IMG/VR virus record: IMGVR_UViG_3300022661_000051
Strand: one strand, 5' to 3'
From: a virus
Taxonomy: Duplodnaviria; Caudoviricetes
DNA length: 64,000 bases
In this document: piece by piece, positions 23,815 through 58,278 of the stretch
How the letters are laid out: the number at the start of each line of letters is the position of its first letter
Numbering within the stretch: position 1 is the first letter of the stretch
Made by a program: the position numbers and the translations under genes
The notes under the pieces: model-generated
The model's database searches: none
The model's input: only the letters and a program-made list of their open reading frames with translations
Told to the model about the DNA's origin: nothing

Positions 23815-24199
23815 AAAAATGACGGAAATGACCGAGTAGCATAATGCTACTCGGACAAATTTCATATATCATCATAAAAAGATAAAATTCGGCTTATCGT
23901 CGAGACGACTGTAGATTTACAGGTCTTCTCCCATAACTCTGTAAATCAAGCGTCTCAACGATATAGATTATGTTGTTCTCCCCAAAACAAGTAAGCCCAA
24001 CAAAATAAAGCCCTTGTTCTGGAGAACGCTGGAATGGACCGTAAAAATATTTCTCTCTTAGCATTAAGTAACGAATTTCAATAATACGAACGGTAAGCGC
24101 AAAAAAACGTTTTAGTGAAAGCGAAACCGAACTAATAATTCAAATCGTAAGATTCCAATCACGTCTGATTTATCAGAAGCTTTGAGCGATTATTTTTAC
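23815..24199 (-). ncRNA. putative structured ncRNA N1 (about 380 nt)
   Basis: Late promoter 24199-24210, hairpin 23832-23854, no ORF, long internal stems. Confidence 0.6.
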
Positions 24200-24226
24200 A
24201 TTATATTGTTATATAGTGTGTAATTA

Positions 24227-25318
24227 TTAATTACTACCATTGTTACCTTCAGTATAATAAATAGAATCGTGAACGGCTTCAAGATGTAAAGCGTATTTAC
24301 GAATCTCCTCCTGAGCATGTTCATCAGTTCTAAGAGCCAAGAATGAGATAAGAGAATCGAGACTAAATGTCATATAGATTCTCTTACATAATACATTAGA
24401 AGGTAAGAAGGCTCTTGCATCTTCCTTCTTAAATTTGGATTTAAGAAGCTGCGGATAAATAGACATAAGTTCTGCCGCAAGTTTATCCGGAGTCATATTA
24501 ACTTCCTTGCCGAAGATCTTGATATTGATTGTCTTGTCCTTGATAGAATCGGGTACATAGAAATCGTTACCGGTGTAGTTTACATAACGCTGAGACTCCT
24601 GTGTAATTCCGTTACGATGTCTTACAAGCTGATGAGTGGCAGTTCTTGACATATTCTTGAAGAGAACAGTAAATGGAAGCGTAGTTAATACTTCTGTAGG
24701 TGTAAATCCATATTTGAAAGCGAAATCGATCATTTCGTCCTTATATTCCTTTGAAGGGTATCCATATACTTTAATTTGTGGAGTTTCGATAAGATTCTGA
24801 GTTTCGTTTACATCTTTACAATCGTCTTCAGGACTTAAGATGACATCAACAAAACGATTCATATCGATTCTTCCGGTATGCTCAATACCACAATAGAATT
24901 CTTTTACTGTATGATCGTAAAGAAGAGACATAATATCAGTGAATATCTCGCCATCAAGATTCTCAACCTTTGCTACAAGATCAATAAATCCTCTTATAGA
25001 ACCGCCGATAAGAAGATTAAATGTATTGTCTTCATTCACAGTCATATAATGTCTCAAATACTGTGTTCCTGCGAAGATATCAGCGAGTTCAGGATACTGG
25101 CTTGTAGGTCTGTTAACAAGCATCATAGAGAGGTATCCGTGTTCGAGAACAGAACCGTGACCATGTTTTACTCTCTTAGAGATATACTCTTTCTTTTCTT
25201 CATAAGTAAGGTCTTTAGTGTTATCATAACATGCAGTACATGCTTCATAAATAATGCTAACCGCATCGTTATAATATAACATCATTGAGGATTCTTTGTT
25301 TGTGAATTCAAGTTTCAT
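24227..25318 (-). CDS. thyX: flavin-dependent thymidylate synthase
   Basis: GHGSVLEH and SRTATHQLVRHR..QESQRYV motifs, plus EDARAFLP and HAQEEIR. Confidence 0.92.
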   Translation of the reverse strand: MKLEFTNKESSMMLYYNDAVSIIYEACTACYDNTKDLTYEEKKEYISKRVKHGHGSVLEHGYLSMMLVNRPTSQYPELADIFAGTQYLRHYMTVNEDNTFNLLIGGSIRGFIDLVAKVENLDGEIFTDIMSLLYDHTVKEFYCGIEHTGRIDMNRFVDVILSPEDDCKDVNETQNLIETPQIKVYGYPSKEYKDEMIDFAFKYGFTPTEVLTTLPFTVLFKNMSRTATHQLVRHRNGITQESQRYVNYTGNDFYVPDSIKDKTINIKIFGKEVNMTPDKLAAELMSIYPQLLKSKFKKEDARAFLPSNVLCKRIYMTFSLDSLISFLALRTDEHAQEEIRKYALHLEAVHDSIYYTEGNNGSN

Positions 25319-26405
25319 TTTTATTTCCTCCGTTACGTGAATTTATTAAAGATACCATATCGTTTATAACTATACTTAATGGTATTCTTTGAAAATCGTG
25401 ATTATCTATTGTCCACATAGGAACACGTATAACATTAATCTTATAGTTAATCTTATAATCTGTTTCTAAAATATAGAGAAGATTATAATACAAATTCTTA
25501 TACATATTAGAATAGGACTCTTCGGAGTCTTGTATTATCTTATAATCAATCATCTCATTCTTAGAAGAGTTTTTGATTATTTCTTCCATATAAGGATTGT
25601 TAGAATCGAGCATGACGATATTTAAATTTATAGAATCTTTGTACCCAATCATTTGCTTCAGCGATGGGTATTCCTCAAGTTGTACTGTGAATATACTGAA
25701 AGCTGACTTTACTTCATATATATTAGAATAGAATTCGCTGAACGTTGTGTTTAAATCTTTCTTAAATAAGAACAAGAATTTCTCACAAGCTTCAGACAAT
25801 GCGCCTGATTCAACATCGCAATCAATGACCCCTGTTATAATATCATGCAGATAATTATAATACTTACTATAGAAATTGAATTTTGAGTAGTTATATATAA
25901 ATGTGCTTATATATGATCTATCCAATAAATATGCAGGCAATACCGATTGATCATTTTTATAATCAGATATTATATTACAGAGATGTTTATCTTGATCCGT
26001 AAGGTTGACTCTTACCATAGCATCATAGATTTCTATTAGATGCTGAATATTGTTTGCTATCGTAGGTAGAATAGTATACATAATAGCCTGTGGTCTACTT
26101 TTCACAAGCTTATCTACAACTTCACCGTCTACATTAGTAACTGCTTCCTTAAGATGCTGTAAGAGAATTGGTATTGTACATTCTTCTATCTCTCTAGCCA
26201 TCTTTACAAGGCTATTCATTTCTGCAGTTACATCATTTGTAGGAAATTTAATTATATCTACACTATGTATATTATCTGGATTAGAAGCGATCTTATTAAT
26301 TAGAGTTGTTTTGCCAGCACCATTTAACCCTTCAAAGATATATATTCCTTTAGGCAATGGCGTTATAGGTTCTTTATCTTCTTTATTATAATGTCCTGTG
26401 TACAT
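25308..26405 (-). CDS. tmk: thymidylate-kinase-like P-loop kinase (enlarged)
   Basis: FEGLNGAGKTT, IIKFP and LLDRSYIS motifs; overlaps thyX. Confidence 0.6.
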   Translation of the reverse strand: MYTGHYNKEDKEPITPLPKGIYIFEGLNGAGKTTLINKIASNPDNIHSVDIIKFPTNDVTAEMNSLVKMAREIEECTIPILLQHLKEAVTNVDGEVVDKLVKSRPQAIMYTILPTIANNIQHLIEIYDAMVRVNLTDQDKHLCNIISDYKNDQSVLPAYLLDRSYISTFIYNYSKFNFYSKYYNYLHDIITGVIDCDVESGALSEACEKFLFLFKKDLNTTFSEFYSNIYEVKSAFSIFTVQLEEYPSLKQMIGYKDSINLNIVMLDSNNPYMEEIIKNSSKNEMIDYKIIQDSEESYSNMYKNLYYNLLYILETDYKINYKINVIRVPMWTIDNHDFQRIPLSIVINDMVSLINSRNGGNKNET

Positions 26406-26554
26406 GGTGTTAAACCTCCTGTATATTTTATATTATAAAGTTTTACTATGGGTGAAATTTGCTCGCGCTTTGGGGTGTTTGTATTCTGTAATCTATACTA
26501 TAAATCTTATATTTGTAAAATATTAGTATTTTTTTAATATTGAATAAACATCTA

Positions 26555-26710
26555 TGTAATAGAGGAGCAGGGGAAACAGGGAAGGTATTAATAGGAACAG
26601 AGGAAAGAGGGAGCATAATAATAGGAGCAGAGGAGCAAGGGAAGATAATAATAGAGAAAAACTGGAAACAGGGAAATAGGAGCAAGGATATGGGGAGCAT
26701 TATAATAAAA
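26555..26710. repeat. purine-rich imperfect ~30-bp tandem repeats next to an AT-rich tract
   Basis: ATAGGAACAGAGGAAAGAGGGAGCATAATA and ATAGGAGCAGAGGAGCAAGGGAAGATAATA, plus degenerate flanking copies. Confidence 0.7.
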
Positions 26711-26746
26711 TTCCAATTCCAAGACAATTTCCCATAACATTATAGT

Positions 26747-26856
26747 AAGAATAAATTTTTTCATTGTTCATAAAATTCTCTCTGGATTTTATGATTGTCT
26801 CCTTTCAGTTTTGATATATAAAGATAGTCTAGGGATTGTCCCTAGACTATTCTTCT
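26747..26856 (+). ncRNA. putative small RNA N2 (about 110 nt) with anti-AUG and anti-SD tracts
   Basis: Promoter 26736-26747, terminator 26824-26850. Contains UUUUUUCAUUGU and GUCUCCUUUC. Confidence 0.6.
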
Positions 26857-26939
26857 GCCAAATTATTCTATATACTTATTATTCTAATATAATAATCGAT
26901 AAAGAACGAGACTAGGGAATTTCCCTAGTCTCGTTTCTA

Positions 26940-29900
26940 TTATTCCTCAACTTCCAAATCAGGATGATGAATATTATAGTCCTGTTTAATTCCCATTATA
27001 TCTTTAACTTGTCTATCTAATTCAACTAAGAACTTATAAGCTAAAGTATACTGTAATGGAGCAGTAATCATACGTTTATCAAATGATACCATTGAAACAA
27101 GACAATCGATAACTTCGTTATCTCTGTAAGATGATCTCGGTTCATTACCAGGATCGAATACTTCTTTAGCAACACCCTTTTGAGCTCCAAGAATAATAAG
27201 TTTATCTCCAATAGAGAAGTCATCTTTATACGAAACATATATTTCAATAAGAACACCTTCATCTACATTCTTCAACTTACCAGTACTGTCAAGACGATAG
27301 TCTGATACATATTCTTTAGCCTTTTCTGGATCGTACTTTTCAATAGTCTTTCTGATTCTGTTCTGAGAATTCTCATAATCCTTAACAATCTTCTGAAGAG
27401 AAGGAGAGAGTTCATCGATCTCTACTGTACGATATATCTTAATATCTTCAATAACACCAGTATTATGAGACTTGATCGGAATTCTACCAAGAGATGTTAC
27501 AGTTTCTTCATCATCTACGAGATTCTTCAGAAGAACGTTTACATCATCATCTTCAAAAGCATTCTGCATTACCATAAGAGGTTCACCCTCTTCAATCTTC
27601 TGTCCAACCTTTACCAGATTATATACGTTAGTATTCTTAGAAAGGTTAACATCAACCTTAGTAACTACATTAGACGACAGAGCATTACTCATATATCTAC
27701 TTACAGCACAAGAATCTTCGAATCCCTCATCTGTAGTAAGAATAGCGATTTTAGCAATAGTTCCCTGATTATAAGTAGCATTATCATCATAACCAATACC
27801 TGTAGTATATGACATAGGATCATAAGCAATCAAGTCTCCAGTTTTTACTGTAGAACCAAGCTTATCTGCAGGTTTAAGTTTAATAGATGTGTAGAAACCA
27901 CCGTCAGAGTTTTTATATACCTTATTATTTAGATCGACATATTCAATTGATCCATCCTTATACTTAACTACGATATGATCAGAAGTCTTCTCTACGACTT
28001 TACCATCCATTTTAGCGTTTATAGAGAAATAATCTGGAGTGAAGTTTGATAAAGCGTCGTCCATACCGTTAGTAATAAGAAGAGGATCACCTCCAGCTAC
28101 TCTCATATCATGCTTAGTACGCTGAGTGAATGACATAGCTTCACGGAACGGGTCATCATGAGTTGTCGAAAGTGGAGTAAGAGCTTCTGCAATACATGTA
28201 GTATTAACGTCATTCATAATATCCTTATTATCTGCAGTATCTTTGATATAACCACGCTTACCAGATATATTCATATTAACTGTTGTCTGACGAGTTTCAC
28301 CAACCGTTGAAGCGAAACCAGTTGACATAGCTAATATACCATTCATCGACTTGTCATAAGTTCTCTTATCCAAACTATATGAACGTTCAGAGTTCATACC
28401 AGATAATCCTTTAAATGAAACCGTATTGGCAGCTTCAGCATAACAAAGATCATTTATAGTAGACGCATCAGATGTAGTATTATCTGTAAGAACCTTATCT
28501 ACAATTGCTGACTGTTTGATAGTCATAACAGCCTTACCAGTTTTCTTCATCTTTGTATGATAATCAGCATAAGACTCTGATAAAGCTTTATATGTATAAC
28601 CAGCAATTAGCTCATTTGTTCTGAATCTGTTTCCGGTAATATCAACGTGCTTATTGAACTTAGAATCTGTAAGAAGATTAGAAGCATAGAATAATGCTGA
28701 ACAGAAATCGCTAGGAAGATTATAAGCTTCACATGTTCTTATAGTGATAGGGTCAAACATCAGGTTATAGAAGTTATCAAGACCATCAGCCTTTATTCTT
28801 CCGCCGAATATATCAAGCATTTCTGTCCACATAGATTTTGTATCTATATCTTTGATAGAATAATCTTCTGTATTACATTCTTTAAGACCATTCATAAGAA
28901 GAGATGACGAATAATCTATTTCATAATATAAGAATGCATCTTTGAACTTGATACAGTCGTATGATTCACGAGGTCTTTTTTCTCTCTTATCACGGATTTC
29001 ATATTTAATTCCTGCTTTATTGAGAGACTTGGTAAGACCTTCGCAATATGCTGCGACTACAATAACTGGAATGGTTGTATTCATGATACTAGCCTTTGAA
29101 TAAGAACATCTTGAGCTAGGCTTAACCTCATTATATATAGCTTCAAATTCAGGATCTTTGATAAGAACACCACGAAGTTTATCTGAGAAGAAACGATCAT
29201 TCTTATCCATATAGATAACATACTTTTCCGAAGAATTATAACCAACAGGAATACCTTTAGAGTAATTGATTTCTTTTTCGTATTTAGAACGGATCTCATC
29301 CTGGTCAAAATAGAATGTCGTGTCTCCGTAAGAAATCGTAGAATATTGTGAGCCGAAGTCGATATAGTCTAAAGGAAGATCGTATTTAAGAGCTCCGAAA
29401 GCATTACTACCGATCTTAATCTTAATCTTATTTCCTGTATATTTACCAAGAGCTTTTGACAACAGATCTGATACTATATTAGACTTACCAAATGTAGTAC
29501 CAAATATTCTGAAGAATATCTTGTTGTAGTTTGTTGTGATCTGGCAGACATCCTTTTCTGTTTTAATAATTGGGAGATTCATGAGCTGTCCGTTGATAGT
29601 TTTATCGTTACCTCTCAATCTCATAAATCTATTATTCTTAAACTTAGGAATATCGAATTTAAGAGTAAATCTTGTACCCTTAATATCCTCCATCTGAACA
29701 GTCCAAGTTTCAATAAGATCTTCGGATGTTGAAGTATCTTCGACCTTAACATCTCTTACAGACACAGGAATTGTTCTTGTTCCAAAGAATGCGAGTATCG
29801 CCATGATATCTTCATCGACATTATATGACTTATTAAAGTTAATGTATTGTAAGTTATCCCACTGATCTGCATTGATCGAGTTGATATTAATTTTAGTAGT

Positions 29901-32051
29901 AGGAAGAGGATCCTTATCTCCAATACTCTCGGAATTAGAAATAAGTTCTTTAACAGTCTTACCTTTAACTGTCTTTTCTCTGAATCTATCATTAAGCTGA
30001 TTGATACGAGATGTTCTTGTAGCAGATGCTTTGATTTCGCTATTTTCTTCATCAGATATATCCTGAATAATATTAGCGATGTATTCTTTTTGATCAAGAC
30101 TATCTATAGCAGACTCTACAGAATCTGAAGAATCAGCAACGTCTTTAATAGCAGCTACAACTTCTGCTTTCTTAGCATCAATATCCTGTTTGTTTTCACT
30201 CTTAGAATTATCTCCCTTAACAGGAGCCATATCTTTACTGAGTTCGTTTCTACTCTTACCTGTTAGATTATAGAGCTGAACTTTCTGTGTAGTTTCGATT
30301 CTATCAATAATATCTGTAACGATAGCGTCAGGAGTATCCTTTATTAAATCGTCAGACTCAATAGGAGAATTGTTGATTATACGGTTAATGTTCTCCATAA
30401 ATCTAGAAAGGAACTTCTTTTCGAACTTATCAAGCTCAAGTTTGAAATAACCATTAGTTCCGAAGAAAATAAACGTAAATTGTTTAATCGCTCCTATTGA
30501 AGCTAAATTGTCCTTCCTCAGCTTACGTACTAAGACCGATATAGGATTGACTGATTTCGTATAATCGAATATATCACGATTTTCCTTGTACCAATCCATA
30601 ACAGGTACGAATATTGTGTTAGAGCGGTATCCTGCCTTCTTAAAACGGTCTTGGTTCGTAACACGATTTAAAAAGTCGAGATACAAATCGATACCTCTAT
30701 CTCTTGTGTAAGCATTATTATTGAAGAAAGCTTTATTATAGTATGAAGTATCGAAGAAGAGATTCATTCCCTTATACTGAGAAATATTAAGCTTAGTATT
30801 CTTAATAACTGGACAACTTTCTTTAATAATTTGATATATATCGAGCACATCCTTCTGATTCTTCAATCTTTCAGGAAACAGCATTTTTTTGAGGATAGCA
30901 TCATGTTTAGCATCCTCTTCAAATATATCATCAAAGACTATAGCGTTAGTTGCAGTTCTTAAATATGAATTACAAAGCATAATCTCGTCCATCATACAAT
31001 ATTCATTCATAGGTGCGGATACGATATCTACATCTTCGATCGGAATTGTTAAAGTATCTTTATTCTTTGAAACAAGTCCAGAGAATGATAATTTTTTGAG
31101 TTGCTGTTTAAGAATAATCTCAAGTTTAACGGCAACTTTAGACATTATAACTTCATTAGTTCCAATACACTTAACGTCTAAGAATTTGACTTTATTATTA
31201 TACAGAAGATATCTTCTTGTATTGAGAATCATTGCAGTTATAACATCATCTTCATTTTGAAGATCTCCCATAGATTTACAGTATACATAGCACTGAAGAT
31301 TCTTGTCTCGAAGATTCTTTTCACAATATGAAAAACCAGAGAGTTCTTTATCGACATACGCCATATTCATATACTTTATATTACTCAATGAAGGATAGAA
31401 ATAGTCGTTCTCTTCTGCATAATAGAATTCACTACAACGTTTCATTTTTTCATTAATATCATTCTTATTATTAAAAGCAACCACCTCTACGTCACGATAG
31501 GTAGTGTATTCTTTTATAGCTTTATAATACTTAGAGAATCTGTTCTTCTCTCCAACTTCAAGATCGGTAATCTCAAAATCATCGAGTTTCTTAATAATAT
31601 TTTTAGCAAGAGTTTCTTCATCTTCCGGATCAACATGGTTAAACATTCGGATGGCAGCTCTTACATGTTCTTCATCATTTAATGGGAACTTTCTCTTAGA
31701 CGGAACTCCAAAGTTCTTATCAGGAATTCCTTTTCTTTTATTGGCAGATAACTTACCCTCAGTAAGACACATATTAATAGAGTCCACTATAGGATCATAG
31801 TCGTACTCCACGCCAACAACATTATTTTCTGTTGTTATAATAGTATTAATAGACTTTTCAATATAATATGACTTAAACCAGTGTCTGTTAATAACAGAAG
31901 TTGAGTTGATCATATTAATAGAAGATTCAATATTTGGTGTTAAAAGGGTAACTACGCTACCCTTATTCTTATCTTCCGACGTAGTTGGAATGATAAGCTT
32001 ATTATTAGAATTATACATCTTAAGATGCTTAAGCTCATGTACATGAATCAT
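26940..32051 (-). CDS. virion RNA polymerase beta subunit, N-terminal/middle part, with long N-terminal extension
   Basis: HDDPFREAMSFTQ, EGFEDSCAVS, GDKL..QKGV and SFDKRM beta motifs. Late promoter 32080. Start reassigned to MIHVHEL. Confidence 0.85.
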   Translation of the reverse strand: MIHVHELKHLKMYNSNNKLIIPTTSEDKNKGSVVTLLTPNIESSINMINSTSVINRHWFKSYYIEKSINTIITTENNVVGVEYDYDPIVDSINMCLTEGKLSANKRKGIPDKNFGVPSKRKFPLNDEEHVRAAIRMFNHVDPEDEETLAKNIIKKLDDFEITDLEVGEKNRFSKYYKAIKEYTTYRDVEVVAFNNKNDINEKMKRCSEFYYAEENDYFYPSLSNIKYMNMAYVDKELSGFSYCEKNLRDKNLQCYVYCKSMGDLQNEDDVITAMILNTRRYLLYNNKVKFLDVKCIGTNEVIMSKVAVKLEIILKQQLKKLSFSGLVSKNKDTLTIPIEDVDIVSAPMNEYCMMDEIMLCNSYLRTATNAIVFDDIFEEDAKHDAILKKMLFPERLKNQKDVLDIYQIIKESCPVIKNTKLNISQYKGMNLFFDTSYYNKAFFNNNAYTRDRGIDLYLDFLNRVTNQDRFKKAGYRSNTIFVPVMDWYKENRDIFDYTKSVNPISVLVRKLRKDNLASIGAIKQFTFIFFGTNGYFKLELDKFEKKFLSRFMENINRIINNSPIESDDLIKDTPDAIVTDIIDRIETTQKVQLYNLTGKSRNELSKDMAPVKGDNSKSENKQDIDAKKAEVVAAIKDVADSSDSVESAIDSLDQKEYIANIIQDISDEENSEIKASATRTSRINQLNDRFREKTVKGKTVKELISNSESIGDKDPLPTTKININSINADQWDNLQYINFNKSYNVDEDIMAILAFFGTRTIPVSVRDVKVEDTSTSEDLIETWTVQMEDIKGTRFTLKFDIPKFKNNRFMRLRGNDKTINGQLMNLPIIKTEKDVCQITTNYNKIFFRIFGTTFGKSNIVSDLLSKALGKYTGNKIKIKIGSNAFGALKYDLPLDYIDFGSQYSTISYGDTTFYFDQDEIRSKYEKEINYSKGIPVGYNSSEKYVIYMDKNDRFFSDKLRGVLIKDPEFEAIYNEVKPSSRCSYSKASIMNTTIPVIVVAAYCEGLTKSLNKAGIKYEIRDKREKRPRESYDCIKFKDAFLYYEIDYSSSLLMNGLKECNTEDYSIKDIDTKSMWTEMLDIFGGRIKADGLDNFYNLMFDPITIRTCEAYNLPSDFCSALFYASNLLTDSKFNKHVDITGNRFRTNELIAGYTYKALSESYADYHTKMKKTGKAVMTIKQSAIVDKVLTDNTTSDASTINDLCYAEAANTVSFKGLSGMNSERSYSLDKRTYDKSMNGILAMSTGFASTVGETRQTTVNMNISGKRGYIKDTADNKDIMNDVNTTCIAEALTPLSTTHDDPFREAMSFTQRTKHDMRVAGGDPLLITNGMDDALSNFTPDYFSINAKMDGKVVEKTSDHIVVKYKDGSIEYVDLNNKVYKNSDGGFYTSIKLKPADKLGSTVKTGDLIAYDPMSYTTGIGYDDNATYNQGTIAKIAILTTDEGFEDSCAVSRYMSNALSSNVVTKVDVNLSKNTNVYNLVKVGQKIEEGEPLMVMQNAFEDDDVNVLLKNLVDDEETVTSLGRIPIKSHNTGVIEDIKIYRTVEIDELSPSLQKIVKDYENSQNRIRKTIEKYDPEKAKEYVSDYRLDSTGKLKNVDEGVLIEIYVSYKDDFSIGDKLIILGAQKGVAKEVFDPGNEPRSSYRDNEVIDCLVSMVSFDKRMITAPLQYTLAYKFLVELDRQVKDIMGIKQDYNIHHPDLEVEE

Positions 32052-36221: not shown

Positions 36222-36274
36222 ACGATTAGACCTCCTAATTAGTATATTTGTATTATATAGTTTTTCATTCTATA

Positions 36275-36363
36275 AAAAACGAATGGAAGTGGGCTCAGGT
36301 GTATACCTGAGCCCCAATTATGAAGAAACAACAAATAAAAAAATTCACCATTTAATTGCTGTC
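36275..36363 (-). ncRNA. putative small RNA N4 (about 90 nt)
   Basis: Promoter 36363-36374, hairpin 36291-36314, U-rich body ending in UUUCUUCAUAA. Confidence 0.55.
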
Positions 36364-36389
36364 ACTATATAGTTAGTATTGTGTTAAAA

Positions 36390-36581
36390 ATATAATTTCG
36401 CAGCACTTAGTCCCAGGGCTCCGCTTCCCTGGGACTAGGCCAAAAACTTATGAAAAGAAGTATAAAATGTATTTTTCAGGAGATTCAAAAATGAAATCCG
36501 AGGGGCTTCACGCACACCATCTGTGAGGCTCCTTTACCATGAACAATAATGGAAGAAGACTATAACCCGATCATCTTCTTC
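36390..36581 (-). ncRNA. putative small RNA N3 (about 190 nt)
   Basis: Promoter 36581-36592, four 5' hairpins, anti-SD/anti-AUG tracts, GC hairpin 36406-36439. Confidence 0.6.
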
Positions 36582-36602
36582 AATATATTGTTCACAATAT
36601 GT

Positions 36603-44715: not shown

Positions 44716-44719
44716 AATA

Positions 44720-48297: not shown

Positions 48298-48398
48298 TTT
48301 AACAGGGAAAACGGCTGCAGGATTTAACCTGCAGCCGTTCCCAAAACCATATTGTTCGAAAGAGATGATACAATGAAAAATTGAGGTTACTTATCCTC
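48298..48398 (-). ncRNA. putative small RNA N5 (about 100 nt) with a 23-nt anti-RBS/start tract
   Basis: Promoter 48398-48409, short 5' hairpin, UUUUUCAUUGUAUCAUCUCUUUC, terminator 48305-48342. Confidence 0.65.
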
Positions 48399-48416
48399 AA
48401 TATATAGTTATAACCA

Positions 48417-49850: not shown

Positions 49851-49861
49851 TTTGCTCCTCC

Positions 49862-49993: not shown

Positions 49994-50052
49994 TATATAA
50001 TACCTCCTCTATAATATTTTCCGTATAGGATTATAATTAAGTTAAGCTTATA

Positions 50053-50778
50053 TTACTTTTCGATCCTCTTCTTACGATTTGCGAGAGTATACGGCGTCAT
50101 ATAATCCTGTTCAATAAGGTTACTCATAAGACCTGCGCCTATAAGATATACATCGACGGTCGTTCTAGCAACCTGTGCTGATGGAGTAGAATCAAGATCT
50201 TTGAGAGATACCTGACCAGTAGTATTGATCATATTATACATTTTGTTCTTAGCTTCGATATCATCGGCTTTTGCTCTTGTCATTTCTTTAATAGTATCAT
50301 TCATATTCTGAAGAACAAGCGTTTCAAGCTCTCTGTCCGATTCAACGCCTTTAGAATTTCCGACAATATGATATGTTTTAGGATTTCTGGCAGTGATATC
50401 AGTATTATAACCTGATTTCTTAGTTACAAACTGTTTAAGTTTCTTATAGCTCATATAACCAACAAGAGCTTCATGAGTAGTAGTAACAGGAACACCGTCA
50501 GAATTTTTATATAACTGAGCGCATGTTACCTTTTCTGTAGCGGGAACATTGATGGCTTTCAAACCATCAAGACATTTCTTTGGAGTTAGTTCTCTTTCGA
50601 AAATTGTCTGCTGTAGACGAAACGGAAGTCTCCTCTTGCAGAATGCGAGGAATTGATCGTCCGACATTTTAGAGAATAATTGTTTATAGAATTCACTATT
50701 AGCTTTTGAAGGATCTATAGCGTCAAATGCTTTATAGATCAAAGCTTCTGCTTTCTTACGATTAGCGTTCATAAGCAT
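50053..50778 (-). CDS. virion RNA polymerase beta subunit, C-terminal fragment
   Basis: VGYMSYKKLKQFVTKK, ESDRELETL and KEMTRAKADD align with beta GYMYMLKL..GEMEVWAL..EMLTVKSDD. Late promoter 50799. Confidence 0.75.
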   Translation of the reverse strand: MLMNANRKKAEALIYKAFDAIDPSKANSEFYKQLFSKMSDDQFLAFCKRRLPFRLQQTIFERELTPKKCLDGLKAINVPATEKVTCAQLYKNSDGVPVTTTHEALVGYMSYKKLKQFVTKKSGYNTDITARNPKTYHIVGNSKGVESDRELETLVLQNMNDTIKEMTRAKADDIEAKNKMYNMINTTGQVSLKDLDSTPSAQVARTTVDVYLIGAGLMSNLIEQDYMTPYTLANRKKRIEK

Positions 50779-50853
50779 TCCTCCTTCTAAGGATGTTTTA
50801 ATGTATTGTTAATTTTGTAAAACTTCATATTTTCAGACATATATAATTATAGT

Positions 50854-50978
50854 GAATAAGGAATAATAAATCTTTCATACCTTATTCTCATAGACTTTCT
50901 GCAGTGAAGTCTATGAACCTTAAGTCCCGACTAGTCATCGGGCCGCCTTCGGGCGAGGGCTGGGAGGCCCAAATTTTT
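50854..50978 (+). promoter_or_regulatory. five-hairpin structured 5' leader of the AcrIII-1 gene
   Basis: GAAUAAGG/CCUUAUUC; CAUAGACUU/AAGUCUAUG; CCCGA/UCGGG; CGCC-UUCG-GGCG; GGGCU-GGGA-GGCCC, which contains the GGAGG SD. Confidence 0.55.
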
Positions 50979-51365
50979 ATGATTATATTTGATACTATCA
51001 CTATAGCAAATTCGTTTTCGCTAAACATGCTCCCAAAAGGAGACTACGATCATACATTTAGTATGATCGAAGTAACTCTCGAGAAGGCTCGAGAGTTACT
51101 AGTCTCTGCAGCGGAGATCAAGAGCTGTGTCGGCCATGCTGACACAGCAAATGTATTCAGTACCATGCTGAATACAGAAGTGAAGCAAAATCGAACAAAT
51201 TACATTATGGACCCGGATAAAAGAGCTTTCGGGTCAACAAAAGAAATTCTGCTCGTGGGGCAGTATTCTGGCCCGAGACTCCCAGAGGGGGCTACACAGC
51301 TCCCAGAGGGAGCAGAGATCAGATGGTTTGTAATAGACTTTTACTGGGAGTATCAGCCGATATAA
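50979..51365 (+). CDS. acrIII-1: AcrIII-1-like ring nuclease (DUF1874/STIV B116/YddF family)
   Basis: NSFSLNML, SCVGHADTA, NR, GQYSGPRLPEG and IRWFVI motifs. Confidence 0.85.
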   Translation: MIIFDTITIANSFSLNMLPKGDYDHTFSMIEVTLEKARELLVSAAEIKSCVGHADTANVFSTMLNTEVKQNRTNYIMDPDKRAFGSTKEILLVGQYSGPRLPEGATQLPEGAEIRWFVIDFYWEYQPI

Positions 51366-51476
51366 AGGCTGTCTCCTAGTAAAAGTCAAGAAAGGGGTCC
51401 TTTGGACCTCTTTCTTTTTTACGATTTTTCTTTTTTGAACTTTTTAATAATCTATACTAAATTGGAGGTGCTCAAA

Positions 51477-52658
51477 ATGGCCGAAAAAAGTACAATGGTA
51501 ATAGATAAAGAGATCTATCCGGTAGTACAATCTACATTGAATAAGTCTCTCAATAAATTTAAAGCAATGATGAGTAAATTTTTTACTACGAGAAATTCTG
51601 GACTTTATGATACATTCCCAGCAACTCGTATGATGTATGGTCAGCAAGATGCTGACGAACTCTACTCTGTATTTGGTGTTAATGAAAAAGACCTTGCTGA
51701 AAAGATTTCTCGTACATATTATGGCAAGATAGCCAACTTCAATCCAAGAGCAGCAAAAAACCCTGTTACTATTCTTGGTATGTGTATGATAAAGCACTTT
51801 GTTAATAAGAAGGATACAAAGAATCTAGAACTTTCAATGATATATTTATCATTCTCCGGAAATTTCTATCCTTCTATTCATTATGGAACTTATCCATCAG
51901 CGGTTCCAGCAGACTATAGATTCGTTTGCGATTATGTTGTAAATAATGATCTTACAAATAAATTTGATCTTAAAGCCGAAGGCAATGTTATTGGTGCTAT
52001 AAAGTCTATCTGTAATACATGGGTTAGTTCTTACGACAAGATGTTTAAAAGCCCGACAGAAGACGAAGATTATGTTTATCTTATTCAACAGCTTCATACA
52101 AGAATCAAATCTTTTATGAAGAAAACAGCAGAAGCATATTACAGATGCTATAACAACAGAGATTATCTGACATATGACTCTGATGATATGAGTCAAGATA
52201 GTTTCCGTCTTACTGAAAACGATTCTCAGAAAATAACAACTGTATCGCAGAGAGCTATGACTTACATTACATCCCATGATGTAGACTATAGACTCTGTAA
52301 AATGTGTTCAGATCAGAACGTTAAAACTGATGAAATCAAATCGATTATAGAATCAATAGTAAAGAATACGGAAAACATTGATACAGTAAATGAGCTTTGT
52401 TCTTTAATCGTAGCATCTTACTTTGAAAAGAGTAAGACTAAAGATGTTCGAGATATAGAGTTTATTTCTTATACTATAAAGGCTAAACCTAATACAAAAA
52501 ATCAAAACATTCTCCGCCAGCAGGAGATTATTGATAAACTGCTGAGTGAGAATAGTATGGCATATAATAGACGTAAAGGTCGAGAAGCAACAAGATTAAG
52601 TTATAATCGAGCTATGCTCGCATACTTTGCGCTAATAATCAACCAGTCAAATAAGTAA
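51477..52658 (+). CDS. putative virion structural protein
   Basis: Late promoter 51438, GGAGG RBS before MAEKS. Confidence 0.6.
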   Translation: MAEKSTMVIDKEIYPVVQSTLNKSLNKFKAMMSKFFTTRNSGLYDTFPATRMMYGQQDADELYSVFGVNEKDLAEKISRTYYGKIANFNPRAAKNPVTILGMCMIKHFVNKKDTKNLELSMIYLSFSGNFYPSIHYGTYPSAVPADYRFVCDYVVNNDLTNKFDLKAEGNVIGAIKSICNTWVSSYDKMFKSPTEDEDYVYLIQQLHTRIKSFMKKTAEAYYRCYNNRDYLTYDSDDMSQDSFRLTENDSQKITTVSQRAMTYITSHDVDYRLCKMCSDQNVKTDEIKSIIESIVKNTENIDTVNELCSLIVASYFEKSKTKDVRDIEFISYTIKAKPNTKNQNILRQQEIIDKLLSENSMAYNRRKGREATRLSYNRAMLAYFALIINQSNK

Positions 52659-52671
52659 GGGAGGCATAGAA

Positions 52672-54006
52672 GTGGGTTTATTCACTGACAATATAGATTC
52701 TTCAGAAGTATTAAACGAAGTCTACTTCGGTCAAACTCCTGGAATAACAAAAGTTTTTGAGGCTTTTTCTGCATTTCGTTCGAAATACGTCAATAGCAGA
52801 AAAGTTCTTGTTGGTAATATAGATGCAGATCACGATCCTCTTCTCGGAAAGTTCATATCTGAAGTTGAAAGGGAGTTTGGATTTTATTCCTTCTCGTTTG
52901 TATGTCAATTTAACGACGAAGTAAATATGTGCACTATTGTACCATTCTTTAGAGGTTCAGACCCAAAGAAATGTGTTCAGATATCTAAAGACGGATTCAA
53001 GTTTAAAAAAGAAGCAGAAGTATCTGGCTTAACAATAGCTCCGGCTGGTATGTTATTATCTGAAGATTATACTGACCGTGAGATGTTTGCTATATTCCTT
53101 CATGAGATAGGTCACAACTTCCAAGATTTCTTAAACGGAACTATTATGAGTTGTAAAACGGTTAATGATATGCTCCTTATCTACGGTCTTATAGTAGAAG
53201 CTTGTATCAGACCTGTCGCATTTATAAAAGATGTAGCTACACTTTCAATAGTAAATAATTATTCATTGAAAATTCTATCTAAGGCATTCAATAAAATATC
53301 TATCTCTCAGAATAGAACATTCATATCATATATAAATTTTGTTGGTGGTATATGTAGCATCGCAACCTCCACAGTAAAACAAGTACTAGGTCTCGCCACA
53401 TTACCGATTATGTTAATATATGCAGCGGTTCGTGAATTAATCGGATCTGTTATGAATCCTGTTCAAACCGTACGCGGTTATTTAGGAGAAAAATTTTCTG
53501 ATGATTTTCCATCATATTATGGCTTCGGACCTGATATAACATCGGCTTTACGAAAGTTAGGTATTATTGATGGAACAAAAACTGGCGTATTGTACGCTGT
53601 AGATAAGATTCCTCTTATATCTCATTTCTACAATTTATTGCTCTTACCTGGAACTATTCTTTTGGAAATTTCAGATTGTCATCCGTCATCTCCAGCGAGA
53701 GTTAAAGGTGTAGTAAATTCAATGAGACATGATCTCCAAAACCCATCATTATCACCAAAGCTTAAAGCTCAATTAAAGAAAGAACTGGATTTGGTAGAGT
53801 CACAAACTGAGGATTATTATAATAATCTGAAGAAAACAGATCCTGCTTTCTTAAAGAAGGTTTTCGATAAGTATATCTTCTATGCTTGTGATGGAGGAGC
53901 TAAACATAAATTCTTTACGAAGGTATTTGACTTTGAAAATGATAATACAAAATCGGCTAATAACCTTCGTGAACAGTCCTTTATTGCAAACATAGAAGTT
54001 AAATAA
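52672..54006 (+). CDS. zincin (HExxH) metallopeptidase, probably virion-associated
   Basis: AIFLHEIGHNF, EKFSD and CHP..RV (M48-like). MGLFT start and VLNE|V site. Confidence 0.7.
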   Translation: MGLFTDNIDSSEVLNEVYFGQTPGITKVFEAFSAFRSKYVNSRKVLVGNIDADHDPLLGKFISEVEREFGFYSFSFVCQFNDEVNMCTIVPFFRGSDPKKCVQISKDGFKFKKEAEVSGLTIAPAGMLLSEDYTDREMFAIFLHEIGHNFQDFLNGTIMSCKTVNDMLLIYGLIVEACIRPVAFIKDVATLSIVNNYSLKILSKAFNKISISQNRTFISYINFVGGICSIATSTVKQVLGLATLPIMLIYAAVRELIGSVMNPVQTVRGYLGEKFSDDFPSYYGFGPDITSALRKLGIIDGTKTGVLYAVDKIPLISHFYNLLLLPGTILLEISDCHPSSPARVKGVVNSMRHDLQNPSLSPKLKAQLKKELDLVESQTEDYYNNLKKTDPAFLKKVFDKYIFYACDGGAKHKFFTKVFDFENDNTKSANNLREQSFIANIEVK

Positions 54007-54048
54007 TGGAACTTTTAAATAAAAATAATTATTAAAGGAGGTATTCAT

Positions 54049-54843
54049 ATGCCATTCAATTTCAGAGCATTCCTCGAAGGCGACGATGAGGAAGAAAAGA
54101 AAAAGAAGTCTGATGAGGACGAAGACGAAGATGACGACCTCGATGACGATGATGATAAAGACGACGATGACGATGATTCTACAGATAATGATTATTTAGG
54201 CGGAGCTGACGATGATGATGAATCTGGGAGTAATGATGACGATGATTCAGACTCTGGTTCTACTGATAATGATTATCTTGGTGGCGACGATAGTGTCGGA
54301 GGTATTGAAGGTGATAATGACGATATTTCCGCAGGCGATTCTGATACTGGCGATACTGGCGCTTTTGATAAGCTCGCTAAGGTAGTATACGCAACAATCG
54401 TTGGAATCAATAACTTCCGTCATATTCATTTCCATTGTTCAGGTCCTCATTTTAAGGACATTCATTCTCTTACCGACGGCATTTATTCACAGTTCGTTTG
54501 GTATATCGATGGACTCGCAGAACTCACTCTTCAGGGTAAGGGTATGAAGCTCGACAACTTCTGTAATTCTCATCAGTACGTTGCTGAAATCGATATCGAG
54601 ACTGAAAGTGATTACAATTTTGAGGCGGCATGTACAGCATGTGCTAATACACTCAAGCATCTCTTGAATATCTATAAAGATGCAAGAGATGCGTTTACTG
54701 ATAGACCTGATATTCAGAGTAGTCTTGATGAGAAGATAAGTCTTATTAATAAGAATCTTAACTACAGCATTGAAAGAAGACTGGCCGGATCTGGCGGATC
54801 AGTAGAAGAATCATGTAACTTTTTCAACTTTGACGTAAAATAA
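54049..54843 (+). CDS. Dps/ferritin-like protein with acidic N-terminal leader
   Basis: HIHFHCSGPHFKDIHSLTDGIY..IDGLAE matches the Dps helix I-II pattern; about 100 aa D/E-rich leader. Confidence 0.7.
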   Translation: MPFNFRAFLEGDDEEEKKKKSDEDEDEDDDLDDDDDKDDDDDDSTDNDYLGGADDDDESGSNDDDDSDSGSTDNDYLGGDDSVGGIEGDNDDISAGDSDTGDTGAFDKLAKVVYATIVGINNFRHIHFHCSGPHFKDIHSLTDGIYSQFVWYIDGLAELTLQGKGMKLDNFCNSHQYVAEIDIETESDYNFEAACTACANTLKHLLNIYKDARDAFTDRPDIQSSLDEKISLINKNLNYSIERRLAGSGGSVEESCNFFNFDVK

Positions 54844-55256
54844 AAGAAAGGACCCCGCAGGAATATCCTGCGGGGTTGGTTACATTCACATTGATGAAAA
54901 AATAAATACTTTCATTTGATAGCTTTTCCGTGATAGAAATTTAGAATTATGTACAAAGTACCGATAAATAGTAGGTAGCGTAAGATTTATACGCTTTCCC
55001 TCATTCAGTTGTTTGATTTCTCATTATGGCCGTTAATGAGAAAATCTGAAATGGTGTAAGTTGGATTTTGATTTGAGCAATCTTATTTGTTTGTAGTGTT
55101 GTTATATAACAATCAGTAATAGATTTATAAAGCTGGAAAGCATGTAATGTCCTCTTATGTATAAAGAACTGAAAGCAAATGGATTGATGAGTTCTTTACT
55201 TTATTTCGGTCTTAGACCCGTGACTCGTATCTTAACAGTCGATTTATAAACCTATT
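54842..55256 (-). ncRNA. putative structured ncRNA N6 (about 410 nt)
   Basis: Promoter 55256-55267, terminator 54852-54876 with U-tract on the minus strand, multibranch 5' domain, no ORF. Confidence 0.65.
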
Positions 55257-55282
55257 ACTTATATGTTACCGTATGTTATTTT

Positions 55283-55795
55283 TTATCTAGCCCAGTCAGG
55301 ACAAGGAGCAGATACTGTAAGTCCTTCATGTGCAGGAACCTTTGTTTCTGCCTTAACATAACCGCCGTCAACCTTTTTAGGATATCTCTTAACAGACTCA
55401 GGAACGTCCTTAAGCTGAATAGAGATGTTTGACTTTTCTGTACCGCCGAGATTAATCTTACGGCCTGTTCTGAGATATGTATTTGTGAAGTCCTTAGAAA
55501 GTGCAATCATTGTTTCTGCATCGCTCTTCTTAGCCTCATAAGACTCAACAAGATTTTCAGCTTCAGCCTTAGAGATTTTTGCCGTTGCAGAAACTACATT
55601 GCTGAGCATGCTTCTGTATTCCTGTGCAGGGCAGTGTTCTGATGTGCCGGAATTTGTGAATGTTGTTACCTTAAAATCCTTATCATTGAGCATTGCTCTC
55701 ATAACAGCAACTTCATCTTTATTTGAAGCTGATGCCTGTGAAAGGTTCTCCTTAATGTTTTTGATAAGATCCGCTGTTTTCATGATTTCTGACAT
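55283..55795 (-). CDS. HU/IHF-like DNA-binding protein (divergent)
   Basis: YLRTGRKINLGG..SIQLKDVPESVKRYP..TKVPAHEGLTV resembles the HU helix-2/beta-arm. Confidence 0.45.
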   Translation of the reverse strand: MSEIMKTADLIKNIKENLSQASASNKDEVAVMRAMLNDKDFKVTTFTNSGTSEHCPAQEYRSMLSNVVSATAKISKAEAENLVESYEAKKSDAETMIALSKDFTNTYLRTGRKINLGGTEKSNISIQLKDVPESVKRYPKKVDGGYVKAETKVPAHEGLTVSAPCPDWAR

Positions 55796-55808
55796 ATTAG
55801 TGTCCTCC

Positions 55809-56000
55809 TTAAGATATTAATAATAAGTGTTTGTTCCCGTCTGTAATCTTTACAAATGCGGGAATCGGTTTAACTACCGGTTTACCATTCTTCTTGATAA
55901 ACTCATTGATCTCTATATCTGTCATTGATAACAGAGTATTTATAAATTCATCCCTAGAATGGGGAATACCGATATCTTTTGATTTGCTTTTAATAGCCAT
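55809..56000 (-). CDS. hypothetical protein
   Basis: AGGAGG RBS, late promoter 56039. Confidence 0.65.
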   Translation of the reverse strand: MAIKSKSKDIGIPHSRDEFINTLLSMTDIEINEFIKKNGKPVVKPIPAFVKITDGNKHLLLIS

Positions 56001-56136
56001 CTTAAAACCTCCTAAATAGATGTAATTAGGATCGATTTTACTATAATGTTACTCATGTAGTAATTTATAATTACCCAGTTGTACCGTTTAAGATAAAACA
56101 TTATATTAATTAATTAAAATATAAGGGGGCTTTTAT

Positions 56137-57012
56137 ATGTCATCAAATACATGTATCGGCTATGTATTACATGAAGCCGTTACCGAAACAGAAGCTACTA
56201 TTCTTGATACAAAAAATGGCAAGCCTTACGCTACCGGAATTCTTCAGGATCTTGGAGTCGAAAATAGAAACGGAAGAATATATGAAACTTCGGAAATGAA
56301 ACCTGAAGTTGAAGGAGACCGTATTCAGAAAGAGCTTATTCCTTATGGATATATGAGAGGTCATGCCGGACATCCGTCAACCTCAGATCTTTCTATTCAG
56401 TCTACTATCGATCCTAAACTCTGCTGTGTTCAGTTTGATAAAATATGGATGGATGGTAACCTTATCAGAGCAAACTACCATGGAACTAATAATGAATACG
56501 GTAGAGCATTCTCAGAAGATCTTCTCGAGGGTTGCTTCCCAGCATTTAGTTTAAGAGCACTAGGTTCTGTGGACCGTTCTAGAAACGGAAAGTGCTATGT
56601 AAGAAATCTTCGTATTATTACATGGGATCATGTAATTTATCCTTCACATAAGAGAGCATATACAGAAAAGCTTATCGATGCTAAGGATGCTAGAGGTACA
56701 ATCAAAGAATCAGCTATCATCCTTCCAAACGATCCAAGAGCTAAATTCCATAAGGCTTGTATGATTGAAGAAGCAACAGCTTCGGACGGTAATGTAATTC
56801 CTATAATGAATCAGCAGGTTGTAGATTACGTTAAGAGTGAATCTGCAAATATCAAGTCTATTATAAACACATTTGATACTCTTTACGAATCAGCTATTCT
56901 TGTAAATAACGGCAAGGCTGTATCCCTCAAGATTAAAGGTGGAGATACAATTATAGTAAATCTTGAATCTTATATTCAGGACGAAATTATGAACTGGTGT
57001 TATAATAACTAA
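56137..57012 (+). CDS. prohead core protease (T4 gp21-like)
   Basis: LQ..NRNGRIY, GHAGHP, FSLRALGS and ITWDHVIYPSH..AY motifs. Confidence 0.88.
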   Translation: MSSNTCIGYVLHEAVTETEATILDTKNGKPYATGILQDLGVENRNGRIYETSEMKPEVEGDRIQKELIPYGYMRGHAGHPSTSDLSIQSTIDPKLCCVQFDKIWMDGNLIRANYHGTNNEYGRAFSEDLLEGCFPAFSLRALGSVDRSRNGKCYVRNLRIITWDHVIYPSHKRAYTEKLIDAKDARGTIKESAIILPNDPRAKFHKACMIEEATASDGNVIPIMNQQVVDYVKSESANIKSIINTFDTLYESAILVNNGKAVSLKIKGGDTIIVNLESYIQDEIMNWCYNN

Positions 57013-57040
57013 AAATAAAGGTAGGGTGCGTAATCGCACC

Positions 57041-57865
57041 CTACTCTCTTTCCACTTTAACAAATGCTGGTACATAATTCGGTATCTGAGGAATTGTTTG
57101 TACAGATTCTATATTATCTGGATGCGATACTCCTATAACAGTATTTCCAGATATGTCGTTTTTATATTCAGCCAATCTTTCTTTAAGCATTTTCTGAAGA
57201 TCATGTAACTGATCTATTTGAGAATTATCTCCCATTTCGACACTTATATATTTCTTTTCGAGTACTTGTTTATAATTATCATTCATAGACCCTTCTATTG
57301 TAAGGCGTTCAAGCTCATCCAATTTGTCGAGAAGCTCCGGATCTATGTAATTGTAGTACATAGCAATGAATTGACGATAATAACCGTATACTTTATCAAC
57401 CGGTACAAAAATATACTGGTTGTGGACAAGTTCATGTACTGTCTCACATAATGGAATAAGACCGAGCATTAAGCTATAATGTATGTACATTACTTCATAA
57501 GCTACAGCTTCAATATCAAGACATTCGCCCAAGCTCATTCTTTTATTAAGAATGATTACACATATATCATATAAAGTTATAGGTGAATGATGAATTTCTA
57601 TCTTTACCTTAAATGAATTTTCATTGTTGATATTGGGCATGAATGCACATGACCTCATATTCATATACTCTCTTAGATATGCGATCATATTTCGATACTC
57701 GAAAGAACACCTTACAAACCTTTCAAGATCTTTTATATATTTAGCTCTATCCTTTTCATCGAAAAGATCATAGTCCTGAATTTCGTACGCAGGAATGTCG
57801 TTAGGAATTCTGATAATATCTATCTCGTTCGGTTGAAGAGGTATCATACTATTTTCACCGATCAT
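57041..57865 (-). CDS. HNH-like (YomD-like) protein
   Basis: IEIHHSPITLYDI..LIPLCETVHELVH. Confidence 0.55.
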   Translation of the reverse strand: MIGENSMIPLQPNEIDIIRIPNDIPAYEIQDYDLFDEKDRAKYIKDLERFVRCSFEYRNMIAYLREYMNMRSCAFMPNINNENSFKVKIEIHHSPITLYDICVIILNKRMSLGECLDIEAVAYEVMYIHYSLMLGLIPLCETVHELVHNQYIFVPVDKVYGYYRQFIAMYYNYIDPELLDKLDELERLTIEGSMNDNYKQVLEKKYISVEMGDNSQIDQLHDLQKMLKERLAEYKNDISGNTVIGVSHPDNIESVQTIPQIPNYVPAFVKVERE

Positions 57866-57911
57866 AATCTATGTTCCTCCTTATAATAATAAATTATTAT
57901 AAAGTTCTTGA

Positions 57912-58213
57912 CAAAAAATAAACGCGGCAGTATCGAGGTGGTGCCCGAAAGCACCACCTAAATACTCATTCATTTAAAAACTGCAGGAGTGTATTTAAAA
58001 CGAGATTTCAATAGAATAAATGATTGATGTAGATGGAACCAGCACTATTGGACGGTTTGTGGGTGCGGCTCAAAAATTAAGGCAGACGAGATATTATTTC
58101 GCCGGCAGATAAAACGGCAAAACGGCCAGTCCTGATATCATCTCATCAGCGGCATCGCCGATACTGTAAAGAAAAGAGCGGCTCTCGGCGCCAATTCCAT
58201 CATGTCAATCATT
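57912..58213 (-). ncRNA. putative structured GC-rich ncRNA N7 (about 300 nt) with repeated GCCG motifs
   Basis: Promoter 58213-58224, closing stem 58195-58212/58020-58038, hairpin 57936-57959. Confidence 0.7.
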
Positions 58214-58278
58214 ACTATAATGTTATATATGTGTTAAAAAATAAATGGGAAGATATCCCATTTATTTTATTATATCGA

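Follow-up and report, generated by a model that had tools for sequence, protein, structure and literature searches.

What are the gaps between genes in a phage genome that begin like a gene and end like a gene and yet seem to hold none? The question is raised by seven intergenic gaps, N1 to N7, in a stretch of 64,000 nucleotides (nt) from IMG/VR virus record IMGVR_UViG_3300022661_000051, a stretch that we call the window. A sequence-only reading of this DNA took the gaps to be a dispersed family of late small RNAs (sRNAs), each running from a late promoter to a GC-rich hairpin with no open reading frame (ORF) between, and proposed that their pyrimidine tracts block translation initiation. Our analysis indicates that N1-N7 are discrete promoter-to-hairpin units on the strand first proposed, and very probably functional RNAs. 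The explanation that we favor, and consider probable, is that they are stand-alone transcription units for stable late non-coding RNAs, which form a heterogeneous set.

The window is the minus strand of G000:C1:65112-129111, within a 230,692-bp phage contig (G000; 35% GC). The phage, an uncultured gut virus, is distantly related by its proteins to the Bacillus jumbo phages AR9 and PBS1 (its UvsX-like protein is 37% identical), and its gene content includes an SbcC-like protein, a holin, ThyX, a tubulin-like protein and RNA polymerase beta-like genes. Strong Shine-Dalgarno (SD) sequences precede nearly every gene, and intergenic DNA makes up 8% of the genome. The same genome is present in many animal feces and gut metagenomes; all 24 sequencing runs in which a search placed the phage are animal feces or gut DNA metagenomes, with no RNA run listed. 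Cluster look-ups yielded strain variants with nucleotide identities of 94-97%, drawn from no fewer than five independent samples, and the strain comparisons below rest on 3-7 such near-identical strains.

Promoters, coding capacity and predicted structure

By differential RNA sequencing of AR9, the early promoter is AAATATATATTAT-N6-G and the late promoter AACA-N6-T-A/G, the last base being the transcription start, or +1 (PMC5312081). Both classes are recognisable in the present phage: 65 sites matching AAC[AT]-N6-T[AG], mostly of the form AACWTTWWWATA, sit 15-45 nt before SD-led start codons, most of them about 25-35 nt upstream, and other genes are preceded by early sites of the TTTATATATTAT type. 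The claim that the seven gaps begin at the late promoter motif holds to the base, as all seven start coordinates are the last base of AAC[AT]-N6-T[AG]; N4 and N5 have AACT, like many gene-proximal promoters in the phage. The promoter motif of the units is well beyond chance, with 26 matches to AAC[AT].TATA.T[AG] on both strands of the genome and 24 of these in intergenic DNA. The G-start form, AAC[AT]ATATA.TG, has only four matches in the whole 230-kb genome, and these are N1, N3, N4 and N5. Among AT-rich intergenic sites, six of eight with a G start lie far from any gene, compared with nine of 68 with an A start. N1, N3, N4 and N5 use, then, a G-start promoter subclass that is almost reserved for ORF-less units. 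The sequence-only reading had described the promoter as the one used by real genes, which is literally true only for N2 and N7, because their exact promoter, AACATTATAGTA, also precedes two real genes; it does not extend to the G-start subclass. Late timing of the units is suggested by the analogy with AR9.

No SD-led ORF of at least eight codons is found in N1-N7, in agreement with what had been claimed, except for two 11-codon mini-ORFs on opposite strands in N3; the short opposite-strand ORFs that had been pointed out are also present, at 3-11 codons. A Pfam search of all stop-to-stop frames of at least 28 amino acids (aa) in the gaps gave no match, nor did it bear out a 56-81-aa frame in N1 that we had considered as a GIY-YIG remnant. 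Rfam at gathering score gave no match in the whole window, and at E values up to 10 its best hits to the N1, N6 and N7 gaps were at most 25 bits, far below thresholds. ARAGORN found no tRNA or tmRNA in the window, and the source annotators of all the strain contigs called no gene in the N gaps.

Every N gap is retained, with similar length, in the strain variants. Against a reference divergence of 4-8.6% at third codon positions, the N3/N4 gap diverges between strains by 1-2%, N5 by 2-4%, the ends of N6 by 0.5-4% (its middle has 1-, 4- and 8-nt indels) and the 3' 170 nt of N7 by 0.6-1.8%, the last being almost invariant among strains. In N1 the ends are conserved and the core is variable, with deletions of 13 and 36 nt. 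Frames are broken by indels of 1, 2, 4, 5, 8 and 16 nt among the strains, and 1-nt indels alter both N3 mini-ORFs and a 58-codon frame in the N2 gap. Because large parts of the gaps diverge less than third codon positions and because the indels break frames, the N gaps are constrained yet non-coding.

The predicted folds share a feature at the 5' end. In N1, N3, N4, N6, N7 and N8 (the last being one of two units outside the window, described below), the predicted +1 is the first base of a helix, and nt 1-6 have a paired probability of 0.91-0.98; the values are 0.67 for N5 and 0.45 for N2. A paired probability of at least 0.9 at the 5' end is reached by six of eight units, compared with 3% of 65 mRNA 5' ends taken downstream of canonical promoters (median 0.20). 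We take the exact start of these helices at +1 as an argument that the predicted start sites are genuine transcript ends. The +1 helix of N1, N6 and N7 closes a domain of 125-190 nt. In N1, the closing helix joins the 5' GUAAAAAUA to UAUUUUUAC, some 150 nt further on, and a long hairpin (about 23895-23964) and a terminal hairpin (23832-23854) follow; in N6, the partner of the 5' AAUAGGUUUAUAAA in the closing helix lies some 125 nt further on, and the terminator (54852-54876) is common to the converging gene. In N7, the strand AAUGAUUGA, which starts at +1, is paired with UCAAUCAUU some 190 nt away, enclosing a hypervariable GC-rich domain, and the conserved 3' 170 nt include a hairpin at 57937-57958. 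That 5' domain of N7 (window 58075-58213, minus strand) shows 11-17% substitutions and 2-16-nt indels among strains, inside an invariant closing helix.

The shorter units are simpler. N2 leaves UUUUUUCAUUGU and GUCUCCUUUC unpaired (tract paired probability about 0.2) ahead of a terminal hairpin at 26826-26850, the loop of which varies by indels among strains. N3 is predicted to fold, in order, into a 5' hairpin from +1, an unpaired CAUUAUUGUUCAUGG, a cis hairpin of AAGGAG with CUCCU, and a GC hairpin. N4 opens with a helix at +1 and forms a further hairpin at 36291-36314, and N5 has a 5' hairpin from +1, a 40-nt unpaired U/C-rich linker and a canonical terminator at 48306-48343. The purine fraction of the units is 0.40-0.49 (0.46), compared with 0.541 +/- 0.038 in windows of coding sequence (CDS), and a weight matrix for translation initiation regions (TIRs), trained on the initiation regions of 184 phage genes, finds no TIR-like site in the sense of the units.

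Under the explanation that we favor, the AR9-type non-virion ("late") RNA polymerase of the phage would read the units from AACW-N6-T-A/G promoters. Each RNA would begin with a helix at the predicted +1, end in a GC hairpin, be pyrimidine-rich and lack sense ribosome-binding sites (RBSs), a design that should resist 5'-exonucleolytic decay and escape translation. The units are non-homologous and probably do different jobs. The short ones (N2-N5, N8 and N9; 90-210 nt) have the layout of base-pairing sRNAs, with a 5' stem, an unpaired U/C-rich linker and a terminal hairpin, and would most likely act through base pairing between the linker and the purine-rich leaders of mRNAs. The long ones (N1, N6 and N7; 300-415 nt), closed by a terminal helix, look like protein-binding or decoy RNAs. 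Protection by the 5' helix is suggested by what is generally known of RNA decay in Bacillus, where a 5'-terminal stem protects against RNase J1 and the ermC and aprE leaders serve as 5'-terminal stem-loop stabilisers in this way. As in those leaders, the helix of the units begins within the first nucleotides of the transcript; unlike them, since the leaders are parts of mRNAs, the +1 helix here marks predicted ORF-less RNAs.

A scan of the rest of the genome and of relatives found two further units, N8 and N9, plus an analogous unit in a relative, G001, that has 35-64% protein identity. Ahead of its SbcC-like gene, G001 has a G-start promoter whose +1 opens a 25-bp helix, with about 270 ORF-less nt and then a terminator; a 400-nt ORF-less stretch of G001 is syntenic to N6. 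The layout of the units is thus older than their sequences. Closer relatives were sought as well: a megablast search of phage GenBank did not find one, those from IMG/VR and metagenomes reach only about 64% protein identity (the metagenome scan alone gave 63%-identity relatives only), and an exact-pattern scan of viral contigs with the N7 hairpin gave no match. Within the genome, blastn-short of each N gap returned only promoter words, and the only paralogous element is a purine-rich leader in the N2 gap. The term "dispersed family" is thus apt for the common layout only, because the members have no sequence similarity to one another beyond the promoter.

Table 1. Predicted units, their promoters and associated elements; positions are those of the window unless G000:C1 is given.
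Feature	Position	Strand	Remarks
N1 late-type promoter, AACAATATAATG	24199..24210	-	+1 G at 24199; invariant in 4 strains
N1 RNA, ~385 nt, ORF-less, structured (predicted)	23815..24199	-	fold z -5.3
Early-type promoter, TATATATTAT-N6-A	23786..23802	-	before 149-aa gene downstream of N1; AR9 early consensus from PMC5312081
N2 promoter, AACATTATAGTA	26736..26747	+	antisense to flanking genes
N2 RNA, ~110 nt (predicted)	26747..26856	+	fold z -4.1
Upstream late promoter, AACATCTATGTA, and purine-rich GGA/AGGAG 30-nt repeat array	26547..26735	+	same terminator as N2
N3 promoter, AACAATATATTG	36581..36592	-	late motif
N3 RNA, ~190 nt (predicted)	36390..36581	-	98-99% identity across strains
N4 promoter, AACTATATAGTG, and 89-nt RNA (predicted)	36275..36374 (promoter 36363-36374)	-	fold z -5.0
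Canonical gene-proximal promoter, AACTATATAATA	36251..36262	-	30 nt before SbcC-like gene
N5 promoter, AACTATATATTG, and 101-nt RNA (predicted)	48298..48409 (promoter 48398-48409)	-	fold z -5.6
N6 promoter, AACATATAAGTA, and 415-nt ORF-less RNA (predicted)	54842..55267 (promoter 55256-55267)	-	fold z -4.0
N7 promoter, AACATTATAGTA, and ~300-nt RNA (predicted)	57912..58224 (promoter 58213-58224)	-	fold z -4.4
Canonical gene-proximal promoter, AACTTTATAATA	57895..57906	-	30 nt before 274-aa gene
N8	G000:C1 172723-172935	+	ORF-less late-promoter unit, helix from +1, unpaired CACCUCC, terminator
N9	G000:C1 15003 to 14870	-	ORF-less, promoter as in N6, antisense to neighbours, helix from +1, unpaired CACCUCC, terminator

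Transcript ends and neighbouring messages

Both the transcription of N1-N7 and their 3' ends are predicted from sequence, and several observations weigh against reading them as stand-alone units. The GC-rich hairpins said to end the units are there in all seven, but only in N5 and N6 does a U-run directly follow the stem, as in a canonical intrinsic terminator. The U-run of N1, N3, N4 and N7 is displaced from the stem by 12-20 nt, and because of this offset read-through could make these four long leaders. A further possibility is that N5 and N6 are 3' untranslated regions (UTRs) of upstream genes, and N3 likewise that of a 72-aa gene. DNA and tblastx comparison of the N gaps with the 64%-identity relative G001 found no similarity, and the AR9-like Bacillus phages, including Goe21, have no gap before the SbcC homolog, which is the position of N3/N4. 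Six units have fold z-scores between -4 and -5.6, values that the terminal hairpins inflate.

The evidence from covariation, drawn from so few strains, is thin, and we regard it as suggestive. In the long hairpin of N1, nine pairs vary among four strains, of which eight are kept and one is broken on the claimed strand, largely via G-U; read on the other strand, one is kept and eight are broken, and slid controls keep 0-5. Variable columns make up 22% of the stems compared with 71% of the loops. A permutation test on this hairpin is not significant (p 0.26), because most changes are one-sided G-U. The stem of the N5 terminator carries a compensatory double change from C-G to U-A, and in the N4 hairpin the strain changes fall in the loop only, with the stem spared.

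One alternative, which we judge unlikely, is that the units are untranslated parts of neighbouring mRNAs, with N1, N3/N4 and N7 as leaders or attenuators and N5, N6 and N3 as 3' UTRs, the internal promoter-like motifs giving genes two start sites, as in AR9. The AR9 study describes 5' UTRs of up to 491 nt and genes with two starts or with both early and late promoters (PMC5312081), and premature termination within 5' UTRs accounts for eight of the 11 sRNAs of phage 201phi2-1 (PMC11512511). A single gene has N1 before it, with a late-type promoter on one side of N1 and an early-type promoter on the other, and the displaced U-runs of N1, N3, N4 and N7 would also suit leaders. N5 is at the same time the 3' UTR of the tubulin-like gene, whose end is 48417; it begins 7 nt past the upstream stop codon, its terminator also serves that upstream gene, and in G001 a terminator directly follows the stop codon of the gene upstream of the N5 position.

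Set against this is the arrangement of what comes after each unit. A canonical promoter at the standard 25-35 nt follows each of them (30-36 nt before the next start codon after N3/N4, N5 and N7, and of the early type after N1), so that the downstream genes need no read-through. Helices placed exactly at +1 argue for real 5' ends. N2 and N9 are antisense to both of their neighbours, N6 and N2 have no co-oriented downstream gene, and on its upstream side N7 is set off from the preceding gene by that gene's canonical terminator.

Pyrimidine tracts and translation initiation regions

The mechanism put forward in the sequence-only reading was a trans-acting arsenal, in which tracts pairing with SD sequences or with AUG-AAR would block initiation on host or early phage mRNAs late in infection. 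We find this doubtful. The quoted tracts are in the sequence, including UUUUUCAUUGU, which N2 and N5 share as written, and the transcripts are pyrimidine-rich; most tracts lie in linkers predicted to be unpaired (paired probability 0.2-0.3, compared with a unit mean of 0.5-0.6). There is also precedent among phage RNAs, as P1/P7 c4 acts on the ant RBS and DicF on ftsZ (PMC12197685). That the tracts are complements of initiation regions could not, however, be confirmed beyond composition. By the TIR matrix, the complements of the units score 11.6 for N5, 9.1 for N2, 8.9 for N3 and 7.1 for N6, and below 4 for N1, N4 and N7; the tracts of N4, N6 and N7 have no SD complement or no CAU at the proper spacing (TIR scores below 7.2). 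Matches of at least 6 opposite the units number five in 1594 nt. Intergenic DNA elsewhere has 1.6 per kb on each strand, and the antisense strand of other co-directional gaps has 0.6 per kb, so that the units show a two- to four-fold excess, but one that was found post hoc.

Pairing energies were computed for the units against 60 phage initiation regions, with 40 dinucleotide shuffles per unit. N2 (0/40) and N3 (2/40) did better than their shuffles, N2 being the only one that was clearly better, whereas N1, N4, N5, N6 and N7 were average. With five of the seven pairing no better than shuffles, the claim that complementarity to initiation regions defines the units is not supported. A best-target search of the phage initiation regions gave no outstanding target for N4 or N5. 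For N3 we considered a gene with an early promoter (G000 183418), since CAUUAUUGUUCAUGG can pair over its start codon with a duplex energy of -37 kcal/mol (0/40 shuffles); as an outstanding target this pair was rejected, since it ranks only 6th of 195 after cofolding. The top cofolding match for N3 rests on an 11-nt match, estimated to arise about once by chance, and the main tract of N3 is tied up in cis, in a hairpin with the unit's own AAGGAG (paired probability 0.76). No single phage target stands out once intramolecular folding is included.

A related question is whether the tracts resemble the 3' tail of 16S rRNA, for which we used a Bacillus-type sequence. Six-mers of this tail occur at 5.7 per kb in the sense of the nine units; the corresponding densities are 1.0 in the sense of CDS, 1.6 on the opposite strand of the units and 2.3 in intergenic DNA elsewhere. 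They are 2.5-5 times denser in the units, a figure that is biased because N8 and N9 were noticed partly for CCUCC. N2 carries CUCCUUUC, N8 CACCUCC and N9 UCACCUCC, which are 7-8-nt matches to this Bacillus-type tail, all of them in predicted single-stranded linkers. A further word common to N2, N3 and N8, TTGTTCAT, was tried as a shared signal and set aside, as it has 29 matches in the genome against 16.6 expected, which is not significant; its intergenic matches are five against about 2.3 expected.

The tracts are, in our view, largely a consequence of pyrimidine-rich composition, which is equally explained by a pairing function or by avoidance of translation of a non-coding RNA. An anti-initiation mechanism is at best a hypothesis for the subset N2, N8 and N9, perhaps with N3 and N5. 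One could also imagine a late set of stable RNAs in which N2, N8 and N9, and perhaps N3, N5 and N7, mask SD sequences by mimicry of the 16S tail, with N1, N6 and N7 as decoys for host proteins; we hold this combination to be quite improbable, although bulk SD masking, if true, would amount to an RNA-based shut-off of host or early-phage translation by a nucleus-type jumbo phage. It is very improbable that the functional entity is not RNA (decayed opposite-strand genes, tiny opposite-strand ORFs, or DNA-level sites for protein binding or an origin), for although the opposite strand has a coding-like purine content and SD- and ATG-like sequences (in N3, AGGAG, 8 nt, ATG and 11 codons; opposite N8, GGAGGTG, 5 nt, ATG and a 21-codon ORF), conservation stronger than at synonymous sites speaks against fossils, the 1-nt indels alter the N3 mini-ORFs and the 58-codon ORF of the N2 gap, the mini-ORFs of N5 and N6 are of three codons, G-U-preserving changes and U-run placement fit the claimed strand only, and no opposite-strand promoter motif was seen in the N gaps.

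Precedents and other elements of the genome

That no such system had been described in jumbo phages, as the sequence-only reading held, was too strong a statement. In 201phi2-1 and phiKZ, ORF-less units from transcription start site to transcription termination site have been found by Oxford Nanopore Technologies (ONT)-cappable-seq and called sRNAs, with function not known (PMC11512511). As there, we are dealing with a jumbo phage that has its own multisubunit RNA polymerases and short start-to-terminator units without CDS, intergenic or in 5' UTRs, and one sRNA unit of 201phi2-1/phiKZ is positionally conserved before a homologous gene, as here (PMC11512511). Unlike that experimental set, the present units are predicted, have no sequence similarity to it, use AR9-type AACW-N6-TA/G promoters and belong to a phage with a low-GC gut bacterial host; the +1 helix, the G-start promoter subclass and closed RNAs of 300-415 nt are not described for 201phi2-1/phiKZ (PMC11512511). 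AR9 itself shares the late consensus, with its last base as +1, and its late promoters also drive antisense RNAs; stand-alone non-coding units are not reported in the available part of that study (PMC5312081). AR9 differs from the present phage in its proteins (about 25-37% identity) and in having no gap at the position syntenic to N3/N4.

With P1/P7 c4 and DicF (PMC12197685), the units N2, N5, N8 and N9 share a 5' stem, an unpaired pyrimidine-rich seed and a terminator, although there is no sequence homology and the complementarity of most units here is not above composition. The CUCC/CCUCC seeds of these four could pair with SD sequences, as RBS-occluding sRNAs do. C-rich sRNAs of Firmicutes such as RsaE/RoxS are of this base-pairing, RBS-occluding type. 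Both ORF-less units in giant phages and RBS-occluding phage RNAs (c4, DicF) are, then, already known. If the units are transcribed as predicted, conserved non-coding RNAs, at least nine of them and sharing one "stable RNA" design, would take up about 2 kb of this phage, and a G-start promoter subclass would be used almost exclusively for non-coding RNAs. The non-coding RNAs of virulent jumbo phages have barely been explored, the only experimental sets being those of phiKZ and 201phi2-1, and the present case adds a Firmicute-type, AR9-like gut lineage with precise predicted 5' ends, structures and candidate seeds. It also illustrates that composition-matched controls are needed before tracts resembling anti-RBS sequences, in non-coding RNA that is AT-rich and pyrimidine-rich, are given a mechanistic reading.

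The N2 gap holds more than N2. Because the upstream promoter at 26547 and the repeat array behind it feed the same terminator, a longer transcript of about 300 nt may exist, with N2 as its 3' portion. The leader consists of AACATCT[AC]T[GA]TA, then AUAGAGGAGCAGGGGA..., then the 30-nt purine-rich GGA/AGGAG repeats; in the window (26547-26735, plus strand) these form a 5-unit array that contains a 15-codon ORF only and is highly conserved in the strains, and the Logan contigs of two strains end exactly at this array. Paralogs of the leader lie at G000:C1 2857-2908 (-), 47896-47942 (-) and 202532-202569 (+), and at these three loci the purine-rich repeat element is the 5' leader of a real gene. 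In the gap of G001 that is syntenic to the N2 gap, an antisense tRNA-Gln (UUG) at G001:C1 158692-158765 (-) stands directly behind a late-type promoter, AACTTTACTATA.

Elsewhere in the genome, a 776-nt gene-free gap contains a group I intron candidate at G000:C1 153245-153687 (-) (RF00028, 40 bits, E 3e-8, against a gathering score of 50), and a structured-looking 480-nt gap at G000:C1 214002-214483 had no Rfam match. Behind three early-type promoters, TATATATAATTATAGTR, lie structured 5' leaders that are paralogs of one another, each about 140 nt long (GAAUAAGGAA...GGAGGCCCAAA), although the genes that come after them are unrelated; the three are at G000:C1 78100-78290 (-), which is window 50822-51012 (+), and at 162320-162520 (+) and 183250-183420 (+). 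The divergent region between the 239-aa and 128-aa genes (window 50773-50978) is the most variable among strains, with 14.6% mismatches plus indels, in contrast with the conserved N gaps. At window 59523-59707, in a 296-nt gap of the crude gene calls, lies a 69-nt tandem repeat of 2.7 copies that are 86% identical, and strain L031 aligns to it at 83% in two registers.

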